From IMG/VR virus record IMGVR_UViG_2687453529_000006: a DNA stretch of 40,565 nt; one strand, written 5' to 3'. The notes below the pieces were generated by a model that was not told the origin of the DNA, did no database searches, and worked only from the letters and a program-made list of their open reading frames with translations. Positions 1,583-40,565 of the stretch are shown piece after piece. This stretch comes from a virus (lineage: Duplodnaviria; Heunggongvirae; Uroviricota; Caudoviricetes). How positions within the stretch are numbered: the first letter of the stretch is position 1; the number at the start of each line of letters is the position of its first letter. Position numbers and translations under genes: made by a program.

Positions 1583-1660
1583 TGAACATTTCAGGCTATT
1601 TTTCTCGCGTTAGGTTCCCGCACAGGTTCCCACGTTTTATGGGAACCCGAAATAACGAGG
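1583..1660. other. dusA/integrase junction with GGTTCCC direct and GGGAACC inverted repeats; candidate attL flank or integrase-binding/regulatory site
   Basis: aggttcccgcacaggttcccacgttttatgggaacc lies between the dusA start and the int start. Confidence 0.35.
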
Positions 1661-1667
1661 TCGTGTA

Positions 1668-2765
1668 ATGGCGTACTATAACATAGAGAAACGACTAAAA
1701 TCCGATGGCACACCACGCTATCGCTGTAATGTGATTATCAAAGAAAAAGGGGTTATCACTTACAGGGAAAGCAAAACATTCCCTAAACATGCTCATGCCA
1801 AAACATGGGGCACACAGAAAGTGATGGAATTAGATCTACATGGCATTCCATCATCAAATGCTGTTGACGGGCTTACAGTCCGTGACTTACTACGCAAATA
1901 TTTAAATGACCCAAATGCCGGAGGTAAAGCAGGCCGTACTAAAAGATATGTGCTGGAACTACTTATGGATAGTGACATTTCTGCGATCAGACTATCTGAA
2001 TTAACAGAAAATGACGTAATAGAACATTGCAGGTTGAGAAACAACGCCGGTGCAGGTCCAGCTACTGTTAGCCACGATGTTAGTTATCTTGGCAGTGTTC
2101 TGGATGCAGCCAAACCTGTATACGGAATTAATTACACATCAAACCCAGCAAAAGCCGCTCGTCCATATCTACTTAAACTTGGTTTAATTGGTAAATCAAA
2201 TCGTCGTAATCGTAGACCAGCATCTGATGAACTAGACATGCTCATTGAAGGCCTTCAACAACGATCTACTCATAAATGCTCAAAAATTCCGTTCGTTGAT
2301 ATCCTCAAATTTTCTGTGTGGTCCTGTATGCGAATCGGAGAAGTATGCCGGTTACGATGGGAAGATCTCGACCAGGAACAAAAATCTATACTAGTAAGAG
2401 ACAGGAAAGATCCACGTAAAAAGGAAGGTAACCATATGAAAGTGGCCTTGCTTGGGGAAGCCTGGGATATCGTCCAACGACAACCCAAAAAATCTGAATT
2501 CATTTTTCCATACAACAGCACTTCTGTTACCGCAGGATTTCAGAGGGTAAGAAGCAAATTAGGTATTAAAGATCTGCGATACCATGATTTGCGTAGAGAA
2601 GGGGCAAGTCGCTTATTTGAGGCTGGTTTTAGTATTGAGGAAGTCGCCCAGGTTACAGGGCATCGTTCATTAAACGTGCTATGGCAGGTATATACCGAAC
2701 TGTATCCAAAATCTTTACATAATCGTTTTGAAGAACTCCAAAGGAGCAGAAATAAGACCTCTTGA
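1668..2765 (+). CDS. int: Tyrosine-type site-specific integrase (dusA-associated integrase family)
   Basis: 365 aa; C-terminal catalytic region with R..HDLRR..Y-type motifs (RIGEV..., HDLRREGAS..., YTELY); GAGG RBS; positioned directly at the dusA 5' end. Confidence 0.9.
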   Translation: MAYYNIEKRLKSDGTPRYRCNVIIKEKGVITYRESKTFPKHAHAKTWGTQKVMELDLHGIPSSNAVDGLTVRDLLRKYLNDPNAGGKAGRTKRYVLELLMDSDISAIRLSELTENDVIEHCRLRNNAGAGPATVSHDVSYLGSVLDAAKPVYGINYTSNPAKAARPYLLKLGLIGKSNRRNRRPASDELDMLIEGLQQRSTHKCSKIPFVDILKFSVWSCMRIGEVCRLRWEDLDQEQKSILVRDRKDPRKKEGNHMKVALLGEAWDIVQRQPKKSEFIFPYNSTSVTAGFQRVRSKLGIKDLRYHDLRREGASRLFEAGFSIEEVAQVTGHRSLNVLWQVYTELYPKSLHNRFEELQRSRNKTS

Positions 2766-2813
2766 CACTGTTTATTCATACAGTTAAAAATAATACTGTA
2801 TACAAACACAGTA
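2762..2813 (+). promoter_or_regulatory. Promoter (TTGACA -35) with two LexA (SOS) boxes upstream of the dinI-like gene
   Basis: Two CTGT-N8-ACAG motifs: CTGTttattcatACAG (~2768-2783) and CTGTatacaaacACAG (~2796-2811); TTGACA at ~2762-2767. Confidence 0.6.
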
Positions 2814-2826
2814 TAGAGGGATTTTT

Positions 2827-3075
2827 ATGCGTATTGAGATCTGCATAGCCAAAGAGAAAATGACTAAAATGCCAAACGGTGCTGTGGATGCGTTAAAGGA
2901 AGAATTAACTCGACGCATCAGTAAGCGTTATGACGATGTAGAGGTGATCGTAAAAGCCACCAGCAACGATGGCCTTTCTGTTACGCGCACCGCCGATAAA
3001 GATTCAGCTAAAACTTTTGTTCAGGAAACTCTGAAAGATACCTGGGAGTCTGCTGACGAGTGGTTTGTTCATTAA
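2827..3075 (+). CDS. dinI: DinI-like DNA damage-inducible protein
   Basis: 82 aa; MRIEICIAK...[15 protein letters not shown] resembles DinI family end to end; GAGGG RBS; LexA boxes upstream. Confidence 0.85.
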
Positions 3076-3137
3076 TTAATACGTAAAATCGATAACGGCT
3101 GGAAATCATTCAATACTCGCACTATCGGAAGTTCACC

Positions 3138-3180
3138 AGCCAGCCGCAGTATTCTGCCATGACAAGTTGCTGCGGCTTTT
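3138..3180 (+). terminator. Putative terminator after dinI-like gene
   Basis: Inverted repeat cagccgcag ... ctgcggct followed by TTTTTAT. Confidence 0.35.
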
Positions 3181-3185
3181 TATGT

Positions 3186-3473
3186 TTAACGGATAAACAG
3201 CCAGACCAGCAGACACGCCATCACCGGCACAGCAAAATCCATCAGGCTTGCTACATCCCACACGCGCGGATCAAAACCGCCCCACCACGGCATATTCATA
3301 CGCTTGCCATGTCCGAACATTTCAATCCAGCGATATTCTGCCTGGGTGTGTTCACGCGCAATGAAGAACGTACAACCGGCTATCGCCCCGTAAGCCCAGT
3401 TTCCGGTAAAAAGGCCAATCAGTACCTGTGCAGCCACAGCACAAAGTGCATGAAGGAAAGGTGTTATATCCAT
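3186..3473 (-). CDS. Hypothetical small inner-membrane protein
   Basis: 95-aa ORF with two hydrophobic segments; convergent with dinI; no family recognised. Confidence 0.5.
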   Translation of the reverse strand: MDITPFLHALCAVAAQVLIGLFTGNWAYGAIAGCTFFIAREHTQAEYRWIEMFGHGKRMNMPWWGGFDPRVWDVASLMDFAVPVMACLLVWLFIR

Positions 3474-31797: not shown

Positions 31798-32120
31798 ACT
31801 TTCAGGCCCCTCTCATGTAACCAGTGGGCTGCACGCAACCTAGCGTTCTCCTCACCGGCAAGCAGTGCGCGGATGATACCGACCGCTTCGCTGTCGTCGT
31901 CCTTCACTGCGGTATGAAGCGTGATCCCCCGGGCCACGCCACGCTTTATCGTGATGACGCCTTTTTTCTCCAGTGCGCGAAGATGCTCCACCGCTGCATT
32001 CACTGAACGGTATCCCAGCATGGTTGCCACCTCCTGATTGGTTGGCGGGAAGCCACGTTCTTTCTGGTAAGAAATCAGCATATCCAGCACCTGCTGCTGG
32101 CATTGAGTTAACGTCGTCAT
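31794..32120 (-). CDS. LexA DNA-binding-domain-like protein (no peptidase domain)
   Basis: 108 aa; MTTLTQCQQQVLDMLISYQKERGFPPTNQEVATMLGYRSVNAAVEHLRALEKKGVI... resembles the LexA N-terminal winged helix. Confidence 0.6.
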   Translation of the reverse strand: MTTLTQCQQQVLDMLISYQKERGFPPTNQEVATMLGYRSVNAAVEHLRALEKKGVITIKRGVARGITLHTAVKDDDSEAVGIIRALLAGEENARLRAAHWLHERGLKV

Positions 32121-32770
32121 GCCGCCATCTCCCTGACCAGTTTTTCCGCCTGCTGGCGAACCTGCGCCAGAAAGGCCTCACCACATGCCTCAAGTTCATC
32201 GCGCCCGATGTAGCTGATTGCCGGTCCCTTCCAGGTCTTGTCGAAAACAGCAATAGCACCAGCGAAGAACGCTCCTGTCGGCACCTGCTTCTCATCCTTC
32301 GGGATAAACCAGGCAGGCAGTTCAAAACCAATACGCCCGCGAATAAAAGCAATATGGTCTGCATCTTCCGGCCACCAAACTTCGCTGGTGGCAGCTTTGA
32401 TCAGGAAAACATAGCGCCCGCCCTTATCACGCATGGCACTGGCATGCTTCATGATGTAACGCATGCCGGTGATGTATTGCCCCTCATGCTGACTGGCGCG
32501 GCTGTATGGGGGATTACCAAAGGCAGCACCTTTAAGCTCCGCAAGACGTTCTGACCAGTCATGCGCCAGCGCGTTGTCTTCCGCCGTGTAATACGCAGCA
32601 CATTTGGCGTTATCACCGTCAGTGAACAGATCCAGAACAAACGGGCCAAACAGGGTGTTAATTCCCCAGAAAATGTTGTCCGGCGTGCGCCACTGATCGC
32701 CCACGTCCTTCAGTTCATGGGCTGGTTTGTTCCGCAGTTCCACCAGCGCCTGGCAATATTTATTACTCAT
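32117..32770 (-). CDS. Phage N6-adenine DNA methyltransferase (orphan)
   Basis: NPPY motif (...FGNPPYSRA...) characteristic of N6-adenine methyltransferases; start at Met12 of track ORF; no restriction partner seen. Confidence 0.8.
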   Translation of the reverse strand: MSNKYCQALVELRNKPAHELKDVGDQWRTPDNIFWGINTLFGPFVLDLFTDGDNAKCAAYYTAEDNALAHDWSERLAELKGAAFGNPPYSRASQHEGQYITGMRYIMKHASAMRDKGGRYVFLIKAATSEVWWPEDADHIAFIRGRIGFELPAWFIPKDEKQVPTGAFFAGAIAVFDKTWKGPAISYIGRDELEACGEAFLAQVRQQAEKLVREMAA

Positions 32771-33258
32771 TAAGCCCCCACGTAATTCCCTGACAGATAC
32801 CACTCTTCACCCGATGCAGCGCGCTTGCTGCTTTTCCGTAAGCACCGCTCACGATGCGCCAGAAAATTGTTTCGTTCTGGCTGGGAGTGGCTTTCACGGA
32901 ATGCCTCCATCCACACCGTTGCAGCTCGACGGAATAAGCCCCTGGACTCCAGTTCTTCAGCCTGGCGGGTCAGGCACAAAATCACCCGGGGGTCGTTAGT
33001 GCCGACATAGAAATTGCGCACAGGTCTGGTTTCACAAACTGGTTCCGGCTCCTGCAATATCTCAGCCTGGCGCGGGAAATGTCTGCGTGTATCCCCTTCA
33101 CAACGGTGAGCCACACGCCCACTCTGACGTAACTTGCTTGCTGACTGCAGAACGCGCTGCCGTGAGTAACCTGCAAAAGCATCCGCAATGTCTCCGGAAG
33201 TACACCCCGGATGGGCTTCAATGAATTTCTGAACGTCATTCAAAAGGCTCATTATCAC
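32770..33258 (-). CDS. Hypothetical protein with PerC-like C-terminal region
   Basis: 162 aa; ...ESRGLFRRAATVWMEAF... resembles the PerC/Pch motif as remembered. Confidence 0.45.
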   Translation of the reverse strand: MIMSLLNDVQKFIEAHPGCTSGDIADAFAGYSRQRVLQSASKLRQSGRVAHRCEGDTRRHFPRQAEILQEPEPVCETRPVRNFYVGTNDPRVILCLTRQAEELESRGLFRRAATVWMEAFRESHSQPERNNFLAHRERCLRKSSKRAASGEEWYLSGNYVGA

Positions 33259-34196
33259 CCCCTGAATCCTGCCGGGATCTGGCTGTAGTCCACATTGTCG
33301 TAACTGGCTTTGAAGTACGGGTCTTCGCGTTTTTCTGTGTACGTGCTGACGGACGGCGATAAGCGCAGGGAAAGTTCATCCCATTTTTCCCGCAGCTTCG
33401 ACGGGCTGAGCACGTTACGGCACCAGAACGGGTCGCGGCTGACACGGTTGTACATCTCGCAGATTTGTTTATGAGTACGACCATCCTGCACACACATCAG
33501 GCGAATTTCGTTTGCCCAGGCTGTCCAGTTCGGTTCTTTGGGACGAACCACCTCGCCGTCACATTCGGCGGCATGCTCGTACAGGGCGATGATTTTTTTC
33601 CAGAGCCACTGTGCACAGGTCAAATCATCCTGCGTCCCCCACTGGCGCTTTTTAGGGCTGAATACAACCGCATCAGGATGGCGAGTTAAAAAATCCTGTT
33701 CAGCCGTCTGCGTGTCCGGTTGCGAAGCGTCCGGACGAGAAGGTTTTTTATCTGACGGATCATGTTTTGATTTTACTGACGGATCCCCGCCAGATTCTGA
33801 CGGGTGAAAACCCGCTTTTTTGCCAGATTTCGACGCATCAAATTTTGACGGGTCAGATTTTGATGCGTCAGATTTTGACGGGTCAGAATCTGACAGTTGA
33901 GAAAGTGCCGCAGCCTGAAGCTTTGCAACGTTAAGCTGATAGACGTTCGACGCATTGCGGTTACCCTGGCGACGCGCCTTACGCGTTAACCAGCCTTCTG
34001 CTTCCAGCCGTGCGATAGCCGTTCTTACAGTACTCACCCCTGCGCCAATCTGGCGGGCAATGGTTTCAATTGATGGCCAGCACACACCTTCGTCATTACT
34101 GAAATCAGCCAGGCGGGCCATAATTGCCACACTGGATAATTTCATGCCTGACGCTGCGCAACCATCCCATACATAGCCGGTTAATTTAGTGCTCAT
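33255..34196 (-). CDS. Replication initiator (lambda O-like N-terminal HTH) with internal repeat linker
   Basis: 313 aa; N-terminus (…VAIMARLADFSNDEGVCWPSIETIARQIGAGVSTVRTAIARLEAEGWL) resembles phage O-type initiators; Ser/Asp/Lys repeat linker. Confidence 0.8.
   Translation of the reverse strand: MSTKLTGYVWDGCAASGMKLSSVAIMARLADFSNDEGVCWPSIETIARQIGAGVSTVRTAIARLEAEGWLTRKARRQGNRNASNVYQLNVAKLQAAALSQLSDSDPSKSDASKSDPSKFDASKSGKKAGFHPSESGGDPSVKSKHDPSDKKPSRPDASQPDTQTAEQDFLTRHPDAVVFSPKKRQWGTQDDLTCAQWLWKKIIALYEHAAECDGEVVRPKEPNWTAWANEIRLMCVQDGRTHKQICEMYNRVSRDPFWCRNVLSPSKLREKWDELSLRLSPSVSTYTEKREDPYFKASYDNVDYSQIPAGFRG
33745..33900. repeat. Iteron-like direct repeats inside the replication initiator gene (candidate origin)
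   Basis: About eight copies of a TYTGACGGRTC-like 11-mer (tctgacggatc, actgacggatc, tctgacgggtg, tttgacgggtc, tttgatgcgtc, ...). Confidence 0.6.
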
Positions 34197-39576: not shown

Positions 39577-39996
39577 TTACTCATCATCAATAGATGATAC
39601 GCAATATTTATTTTTAAATTTAAGGTTCTTTGGCGTAACTTCATCAGATATATCAAAACCGTCCAGAATTCTATTGAATGTAGCTTCTGGCATATCATCA
39701 TGAACAGAAATCTCACCCGATCGCTGCTTTCTAACCATGTTATCCACTCGCCAAATTATAGCTTCAGCGTAAACAACATAACTTGGATGCTTGATAAAGC
39801 GATGATCACCAGAATTCAAGACGCAAGACGGATCGTGGGGGACACCATCCTTGATACTAGAAATATTAACAACTAAAACACAATAACAATCGTTAACGGG
39901 GTAATAAACAGGATCATTACAAATCACATGAAGATGATTGCATGGCCCAGTTGGGGCAAGCACAGTTCCTTTCCTGTATGGCTGATAATCCGTCAT
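39577..39996 (-). CDS. Unrecognised 139-aa protein translationally coupled to the PanA-like gene (candidate toxin/effector)
   Basis: Start overlaps upstream stop (ATGA); low GC; contains an R-x6-H stretch (RSGEISVH). Confidence 0.6.
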   Translation of the reverse strand: MTDYQPYRKGTVLAPTGPCNHLHVICNDPVYYPVNDCYCVLVVNISSIKDGVPHDPSCVLNSGDHRFIKHPSYVVYAEAIIWRVDNMVRKQRSGEISVHDDMPEATFNRILDGFDISDEVTPKNLKFKNKYCVSSIDDE

Positions 39997-40565
39997 GATA
40001 ATTGCAAAGAAAATTCCTTAAGTTTCTGAGATTCTTCCATTTTGCCAATTATACGATTAGCCTCATCCTCGCTTTTACCCTCACTGATCAGCATTTCTTT
40101 CAGGTCTATAGGCTTACGAGAATTGCCAGAATTATGCCACTCTGGACAAACGCTTTCTAAATGCGTCATGTTTGCGAGATCAAATCGGTTCATATGCCCA
40201 TACAGAGAATAGATTTCATCTAAAATCCGGATATCTGCACGGCTCAACTCATCAAAGACCTCGTCTGCATCCATTTCCCTCGGATCTGAACGCAACAACA
40301 CATCATGCCCGTTCGTCTCTATCAAGTTGTACCAGTAGTCACCAATGCCTTCAGCCTTACCACGAATCAAGTTCAGCGTATTCGACATGACTGGACCAAA
40401 TTTCATAGAGTAAAGACTATCTTCGCCGATCATCCTGCCATGCTTCAAAATCGACTTGCGGTTAGACAGATAGAGCAGCTTCATCAATTTCAGATATGCC
40501 ATGCGCCCACCTCGCTTAAGAAGTAGGTATGCAGCCATTTGAGCTACTTTTTCTTCGCAAAACAT
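39993..40565 (-). CDS. Panacea-domain (DUF4065, PanA/GepA-like) protein, N-terminus probably beyond the window
   Basis: ...AYLKLMKLLYLSNRKSILKHGRMIGEDSLYSMKFGPVMSNT... resembles the Panacea domain core as remembered; ORF reaches the window edge. Confidence 0.6.
   Translation of the reverse strand: MFCEEKVAQMAAYLLLKRGGRMAYLKLMKLLYLSNRKSILKHGRMIGEDSLYSMKFGPVMSNTLNLIRGKAEGIGDYWYNLIETNGHDVLLRSDPREMDADEVFDELSRADIRILDEIYSLYGHMNRFDLANMTHLESVCPEWHNSGNSRKPIDLKEMLISEGKSEDEANRIIGKMEESQKLKEFSLQLS

Follow-up and report, generated by a model that had tools for sequence, protein, structure and literature searches.

The subject of this analysis is a repeat array in the virus record IMGVR_UViG_2687453529_000006 (Caudoviricetes), a DNA stretch of 40,565 nucleotides (40.5 kb) that was analyzed as a whole and is called the window below. 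The array lies within the linker-coding part of a gene for an O-like replication initiator, and it is probably the replication origin of the lambdoid prophage contained in the window; from the sequence comparisons we put the probability at roughly 0.78. A candidate origin inside the initiator gene, mirroring lambda ori, had been proposed in a first-pass annotation of the window. The proposal is backed by frozen synonymous sites in the repeats, by the co-variation of the repeats with the DNA-binding domain of the initiator, and by the position of the array at a domain junction.

On the + strand, positions 33745-33905 of the window are densely packed with repeats, the unit being a near-palindromic 14-mer, TYTGACSSGTCARA. 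Of the eight sites that match this unit and span 33751-33902 (152 bp), five are strong, and four of these strong sites stand head-to-tail, one per 15 bp. The sites are listed with their + strand coordinates and their agreement with the palindromic consensus.

33889-33902: site H, weak or half iteron, TCTGACAGTTGAGA, 11/14, matrix score 5.2 bits
33874-33887: iteron 1 (site A), TTTGACGGGTCAGA, 14/14
33859-33872: iteron 2 (site B), TTTGATGCGTCAGA, 13/14
33844-33857: iteron 3 (site C), TTTGACGGGTCAGA, 14/14
33829-33842: iteron 4 (site D), TTCGACGCATCAAA, 12/14
33796-33809: iteron 5 (site E), TCTGACGGGTGAAA, 13/14, 33 bp from iteron 4
33775-33788: site F, ACTGACGGATCCCC, 9/14, includes a GATC
33751-33764: site G, TCTGACGGATCATG, 11/14, includes a GATC

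The first-pass annotation was right about the count (about eight), the consensus (near TYTGACGGRTC) and the coordinates. The spacing of 18-24 bp that it gave was wrong, since the measured centre-to-centre distances are 15, 15, 15, 15, 33, 21, and 24 bp. Tandem Repeats Finder picks up the array at 33824-33887 with a period of 15 and 4.3 copies.

All four matches to TYTGACSSGTCARA with at most one mismatch in the window are inside the array, as are five of the seven matches with at most two. When three mismatches were allowed, 24 matches were found in the window compared with 14.2 ± 3.6 in shuffled sequences, and none of 100 shuffles reached 24. For a weight matrix, 163 repeat units were taken from other genomes and none from the window. 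The 10 best matrix hits of the whole window are all located at 33792-33891. Because these hits fall on both strands, the sites of the array are dyad-symmetric. The largest cluster of matrix hits in 200 shuffles was 2, and no second array was found by the matrix anywhere in the window. Clustering of the sites by chance is excluded.

The gene and the regions discussed below have the following positions in the window.

33255-34196, - strand: O-like replication initiator gene, 313 residues (open reading frame (ORF); phrog_391; SfIV/SfII homology; Prokaryotic Genome Annotation Pipeline (PGAP) annotation of an identical prophage)
33987-34130, - strand: winged helix-turn-helix N-terminal domain, residues 23-70, presumed reader of the iterons (Pfam HTH_36, E 3e-12)
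33729-33902: zone of frozen synonymous sites, codons 99-156, 174 bp, the putative extent of the cis-acting element and candidate origin
33740-33779: most A+T-rich stretch of the region, candidate unwinding region (G+C content 0.30 over 40 bp; 67% A+T in 30-bp windows)
33366-33701, - strand: C-terminal helical domain, residues 166-277, homologue of lambda O
33258-33308, - strand: C-terminal tail, residues 297-313, ending in ...ASYDNVDYSQIPAGFRG, common to host DnaT (BLASTP, hhalign)

Along its entire length, the initiator matches phrog_391 (PHROG 391, "replication initiation O-like") with an E value of 9e-134, and its gene has 97.7% nucleotide identity with that of the Shigella phages SfIV and SfII. 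It is named "helix-turn-helix domain-containing protein" by PGAP and "replication protein O" or "primosomal protein" in phage records. In a Pfam scan at E ≤ 0.01, residues 23-70 also gave weaker matches to GntR, MarR, DnaD_N, and RP-C, and the initiator did not match the lambda O N-terminal family Phage_rep_O (PF04492). Residues 166-277 have 39% identity with the C-terminal domain in the O proteins of lambda, 434, and 933W (E 1e-17). This domain is modeled by AlphaFold2 as a helical bundle with a predicted local distance difference test (pLDDT) score of 76-91, and it matched no Pfam family. A sequence search of the PDB with the whole initiator yielded marginal hits to MarR-type helix-turn-helix proteins only and none for the C-terminal half; NCBIfam provided no informative family. 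The array occupies nucleotides 295-446 of the 942 in the gene (31-47%), between the HTH_36 domain and the lambda-O-type C-terminal domain, and the repeats encode the interdomain linker of Ser, Asp, and Lys (DPSKS DASKS DPSKF DASKS ...; SDSDPSKSDASKSDPSKFDASKSG...DPSVKSKHDPSDKK). The phrog_391 match and the translated linker thus agree with the earlier description of an array inside an O-like gene that encodes a Ser/Asp/Lys repeat linker.

To assess conservation, 40 loci with the same N-terminal domain (60-99% identity, 36 distinct sequences) were taken from enterobacterial genomes. The homologues come from several genera, among them Enterobacter, Citrobacter, Kluyvera, Buttiauxella, Kosakonia, Yersinia, Tatumella, Rosenbergiella, Providencia, and Erwinia. 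Units of the form GAY-NCN-TCA-AAA-TCT, 3-10 in tandem and accompanied by spaced downstream sites, are kept in 36/36 distinct homologues. Codon use within the units differs strongly from that in the rest of the same genes. Over 167 units, the first Ser is encoded by TCA in 85% of cases compared with 16% for Ser elsewhere, the Lys by AAA in 100% compared with 61%, and the second Ser by TCT in 76% compared with 10%. For 27 diverged homologues, drawn from about 15 enterobacterial genera and aligned by codon, we determined the same-codon fraction, i.e. how often two sequences sharing an amino acid share its codon. The fraction was 0.84 (median 0.96) for codons 99-156 and 0.45 for codons 2-98 (Mann-Whitney p = 1e-16). 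Synonymous sites in codons 2-98, which encode the DNA-binding domain, are essentially scrambled among the 27 homologues; the codons GAT CCG TCA GTA of site F are invariant in 24-27 of them. The repeats are selected as DNA, because constraint on the peptide cannot yield near-fixed synonymous codons. Judged by this codon evidence, they behave as a DNA element and not just as a peptide repeat, and the synonymous positions of the 174-bp block face strong purifying selection across enterobacterial genera.

The same data bear on the view that the array has no role in protein binding as DNA and is the by-product of a slippage-grown Ser/Asp/Lys linker, of an overlapping ORF, or of an RNA element. The encoded linker is plausibly flexible, the copy number varies as it does in slippage-prone repeats, and alternative frames are open across the array. 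The near-fixed TCA, AAA, and TCT codons, set against the background usage in the same genes, speak against a by-product, and we regard it as very improbable. An overlapping ORF was rejected, as the alternative-frame ORFs have no conserved start and range from 0 to 114 residues among the homologues. An RNA element was likewise rejected, with no Rfam match in the window. A terminator-like hairpin at 33801-33814 (+ strand, antisense), CGGGTGAAAACCCG with CTTTTTTG after it, falls between iterons 4 and 5, where the frozen block is least conserved. It was discarded because the stem is not kept in homologues, for example in locus L008 (GATGGTTTTGACCCG).

Two GATC sites are present in the array, at 33758 (site G) and 33782 (site F), and the first (GAT CC) is kept in 27/27 homologues. 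Two sites are too few to judge enrichment against the window average of 3.6 per kb, and they are conserved together with their surroundings. No DnaA boxes were found within the array, the nearest match with one mismatch being at 33596. The phage encodes a Dam methyltransferase (32117-32803, - strand), the gene for which follows the initiator gene in most related loci. The GATC sites and the Dam gene together suggest a possible methylation-sensitive control of the origin, of the kind known for oriC and P1 oriR.

The relation of the repeats to the initiator domains was examined in mosaic phage relatives. Citrobacter phage phiNP has the N-terminal domain and the repeats of the window joined to an unrelated C-terminal domain (Pfam Phg_2220_C). 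The phages mEp460_4F5 and PhiR42_1 have the window's C-terminal domain with another N-terminal domain and four other repeats (CATCGGGTCAAAATG type). In cdtI and Stx2a_1447, a third type of N-terminal domain is found together with a third type of repeat (GGTAGTGCAGGAGATTCAC type) and a third type of C-terminal domain. The repeat type therefore tracks the type of the N-terminal domain and not that of the C-terminal domain; because the mosaic phages change their repeats only along with the N-terminal domain, the two appear to travel together. Movement of the repeats with the O N-terminal domain is classical for lambda, 434, phi80, and 82.

Mosaicism also opens another explanation for the conservation, namely a recombination joint at a module boundary that has been homogenized by exchange and was not selected for protein binding. 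Mosaic breakpoints are located just downstream of the array, where phiNP and mEp460_4F5 diverge at ...S(R/C)P(D/V)ASQP, and the same N-terminal domain and repeats are fused to several types of C-terminal domain. The array is not one recently spread block, however, because the units differ in number (3-10) and in their middle codon (A/P/T/G), while the 12 nucleotides flanking this codon in each unit stay fixed, synonymous sites included. Furthermore, the sites have dyad symmetry and score on either strand, and other N-terminal domains have other repeats in the equivalent position, which a generic joint would not need. Taken together, a mere joint is quite unlikely.

The third alternative concerns function. 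The sites could be a protein-binding control element and not an origin, for instance an operator for autoregulation, an array for copy control or incompatibility such as incA of P1, or a handcuffing site, in which case replication starts elsewhere or depends mainly on recombination. Iteron arrays have control roles in plasmids, which counts for this alternative, and so does the weakness of the A+T-rich neighbour of the array. Recombination-dependent growth has also been tied to LLS, a lambdoid phage with an O-only replication module (PMC12315714). On the other hand, layout and position fit the mapped origins of lambda and phi80 at the domain junction of the initiator gene, lambdoid phages use the same iterons as origin, and the matrix revealed no further array in the 40.5-kb window. 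A control element is unlikely.

Some observations weigh against the array as the origin. The stretch at 33740-33779, which overlaps sites F and G, is located transcription-downstream of the tandem iterons, yet it is only moderately A+T-rich, and with 67% A+T it is weak beside classical unwinding elements. The repeats adjoin the coding region of the N-terminal domain, and linkage could explain part of the co-variation. The frozen block coincides with the mosaic junction, and recombination could have contributed to its uniformity.

As the first-pass annotation had stated, no P-like or DnaC-like helicase loader is evident downstream of the initiator gene. No helicase, loader, or primase is annotated by PGAP in the whole prophage, and the genes directly downstream (PerC-like, Dam, LexA-DNA-binding-domain-like (LexA-DBD-like), RusA, and KilA-N) include no loader of the P or DnaC type. 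ORFs with a Walker A motif were absent within 3 kb downstream in all 35 homologous loci (0/35). There is also no annotated loader or helicase near the gene in SfIV, mEp460_4F5, cdtI, Stx2a_1447, PhiR42_1, phiNP, and Klebsiella phage 1 LV-2017. An O-only replication module was reported in 2025 for 34/314 lambdoid phages, and how these phages replicate was called not understood (PMC12315714). O-only modules thus amount to about a tenth of lambdoid phages, and the DnaT-like tail of the initiator offers a concrete hypothesis for their replication.

The last nine residues of the initiator, SQIPAGFRG, are identical to SQIPPGFRG of E. coli DnaT in 8/9 positions (BLASTP E 0.009). In relatives of the window protein, 13/17 of the last residues are identical to DnaT (VNHISEPDTEIPPGFRG vs VNTVSEPDSQIPPGFRG). 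In an hhalign profile-profile comparison, the tail alone aligns with DnaT over 17 columns (E 2.9e-6). The motif ...PD..IPxGFRG is invariant in DnaT of 14 genera and is retained in very divergent DnaT proteins. It forms the extreme C terminus of both initiator and DnaT, outside the Pfam DnaT domain, and the initiator tail is predicted to be disordered in the AlphaFold2 model. Extended ends are found as well: two Enterobacter prophage initiators (L009, L010) and the DnaT proteins of Yokenella and Pseudenterobacter (P0192, P0239) end in GFRGAK, and Rosenbergiella and Tatumella initiators (L029, L030, L034, L035) end in GFRGA.

Phage initiators carry the tail on four types of C-terminal domain. 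The first is the lambda-O type of the window protein, the second Phg_2220_C, present in phiNP and most genomic homologues, and the third the cdtI type. The fourth type, a genuine DnaT C-terminal domain, turned up in many proteins of 250-580 residues when 1.84 billion sequences were searched with a DnaT profile; in P0301, P0331, P0354, and others it follows a phage-type N-terminal domain. In a small sample of eight phages with the lambda-O-type C-terminal domain, the four with a P partner all lack the tail (4/4). Their ends are of the NTDWxxGV type in lambda, phi80, and Yersinia 210.17, and ...SKESWEDFI in Hafnia Meifeng. The four phages without P end in IPxGFRG or in the variant SLPENSGFRT.

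The C-terminal domain of DnaT uses a surface that is conserved and hydrophobic to dock on PriA, and DnaT presumably recruits DnaB-DnaC through an as yet unmapped contact (PMC13377028, PMC5778457). The tail is deeply conserved in DnaT, occurs on four unrelated types of C-terminal domain, and is absent from four P-partnered O proteins. For these reasons we tentatively suggest, with a chance of about one in three, that (D/M)Y..IPxGFRG might be a portable docking motif that phages took from or share with host DnaT and that enters helicase loading at the DnaT step via PriA or DnaB-DnaC. If so, the motif would explain the replication of loader-less O-only lambdoid phages, and it would point to the contact by which DnaT hands the primosome to DnaB-DnaC, an open question in replication restart.

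Several results speak against such a role of the tail. The globular domains do not align with DnaT in the profile comparison, where only the tail does. About one-quarter of the loader-less homologues end otherwise, e.g. in ...WKEQAQRGNQGEAA. One 16-kb circular record has a gene for a DnaC-like ATPase after an O-like gene that carries the tail. In addition, the searched literature assigns no partner to DnaT residues 154-179. The circular record is an E. coli locus (L094; NZ_CP148542.1, pZ1322PEC0161-2, 1660-3390), in which the O-like gene is frameshifted into ORFs of 163 and 127 residues. The second ORF ends in IPPGFRG, and the next gene encodes the DnaC-like ATPase of 248 residues with a Walker A motif, so that the gene order echoes the host dnaT-dnaC operon. 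Two stronger propositions were dropped. The tail as a strict mark of loader-less modules was rejected, given the tail and a DnaC-like gene in one record and other C termini elsewhere. The lambda-O-type C-terminal domain as a diverged DnaT C-terminal domain was unsupported, as hhalign aligned the tail only and the DnaT family of Pfam gave no match. PF17948, the DNA-binding domain of DnaT, is detected in E. coli DnaT and, even at E ≤ 10, neither in the window protein nor in its relatives.

In the mechanism that we propose for the origin, dimers of the initiator N-terminal domain would bind each palindromic site and form an O-some-like nucleoprotein complex. This complex would strain and open the adjacent, moderately A+T-rich stretch at 33740-33779, and the host helicase DnaB would then be brought in by the initiator. 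Since the phage has no P, DnaC, or helicase gene, the initiator itself would have to bring host DnaB. More speculatively, recruitment may proceed via the lambda-O-type C-terminal domain and the disordered DnaT-like tail (...DYSQIPAGFRG), which would dock on whichever host protein is bound by the tail of DnaT, either PriA or the DnaB-DnaC complex. We infer with good support from sequence comparison that winged-helix dimers bind the sites and open adjacent DNA, which would make this the phage origin. With weaker support, we infer that a phage loader is replaced by the C-terminal domain and the tail, which would recruit PriA or DnaB-DnaC of the host.

An origin inside an O-like gene is in itself of a known kind and was expected. 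This one is set apart by the 14-bp palindromes abutting every 15 bp, the family of the N-terminal domain, the absence of a loader, and the DnaT-like tail. Within the library of literature searched, no description was found of an origin of the window type or of a DnaT-like tail in phage initiators. The array would give a replicon type that is common and of clinical relevance its first defined candidate origin; this type includes the serotype-converting Shigella phages SfII and SfIV and many prophages of E. coli and other enterobacteria. The defined sites open the way to synonymous recoding and to small plasmids run by one phage gene.

The window sequence recurs with 100% identity as a prophage in E. 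coli Ecol_881 and in about 30 other complete genomes. This prophage is complete, about 39 kb in size, lambdoid, and inserted at dusA. An integrase gene lies beside dusA (window 1668-2765 and 542-1579), and a fragment of dusA is found just past the window in the identical genome. Genes of the CI, Cro, and CII type are located upstream of the initiator, and a Q-like gene follows the KilA-N gene on the other side. Directly after the initiator, a protein of 162 residues is encoded at 32770-33258 (- strand) by an ORF that overlaps the initiator stop codon (ATGA). Its N-terminal half is winged-helix-like and its C-terminal half PerC-like. Similar-sized proteins (139-162 residues), several with visibly similar N termini, follow the initiator in about one-third of the related loci (L007, L012, L014, L016, L022, L024, L030, L034, L036), and in others the Dam gene comes directly after the initiator. 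At the window end (39993-40565), the window edge truncates a gene for a Panacea-domain protein, beside which there are two small hypothetical genes; the three may form a toxin-antitoxin or defence cassette.

In E. coli ECGI0523 and ECDA1023 (L041, L042, L043, L045), the initiator gene is split over two distant chromosomal places, with residues 1-79 fused to unrelated sequence at one and residues 77-313 at the other. The split suggests that this prophage copy was rearranged or has decayed; the yfdO remnant of CPS-53 in K-12 is a comparable case. In the plasmid collection, hits were mostly prophages in large replicons or phage-sized circles, with no typed plasmid replicon among them.

Among known systems, lambda has its origin in the middle of gene O, where O-binding iterons are combined with an A+T-rich tract (PMC7466680). 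As in lambda ori and its variants in Shiga toxin (Stx) phages, the candidate origin of the window is within the initiator gene at the junction of the N- and C-terminal domains. It further shares with lambda ori the multiple dyad-symmetric sites, and repeats that double as linker code. Transcription-downstream of the sites there is an A+T-richer stretch, in the window a moderate one and a candidate for the unwinding region. Lambda O has a C-terminal domain homologous to that of the window initiator (39% identity). The differences are the N-terminal domain, which is HTH_36 and not of the lambda O N-terminal family, and the sites, which are 14 bp long and occur one per 15 bp. Lambda iterons are longer and more widely spaced, and lambda ori has four or six of them. 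Unlike lambda, the window phage has no P gene, and its initiator ends in the DnaT-like tail, whereas lambda O ends in ...NTDWIYGVDL.

Gene 15 of phi80 has four annotated gp15-binding sites at 40-49% of the gene, compared with 31-47% in the window. These sites are 15-16 bp long with a spacing of 20-21 bp, and the iteron, TTCCCGAAAACGGGAA, is unlike that of the window. The C-terminal domain of gp15 is homologous to that of the window initiator (35% identity). In contrast to the window, phi80 has the P-like gene 14 directly downstream, and gp15 ends in ...NTDWAYGVIR. The O-only phages LLS, SfII, SfIV, and mEp460_4F5 resemble the window phage in having a single O homologue without helicase or loader. 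Neither an origin nor the tail is described in the work on O-only modules (PMC12315714), and the SfIV genome paper mentions no origin, its "repeat" mentions concerning O-antigen units only. With E. coli DnaT (primosomal protein I), the window protein has the tail in common, while it lacks the DnaT N-terminal domain and the PF17948 match.

Outside the lambdoid phages, a winged-helix initiator binds tandem repeats beside an unwinding region in pSC101, R6K, and P1 oriR. Plasmid iterons are usually about 17-22 bp long, lie about two helical turns apart, and are placed outside the rep gene. In phage SPP1, which encodes its own loader and helicase, the origin is located inside gene 38, the gene for the initiator G38P.

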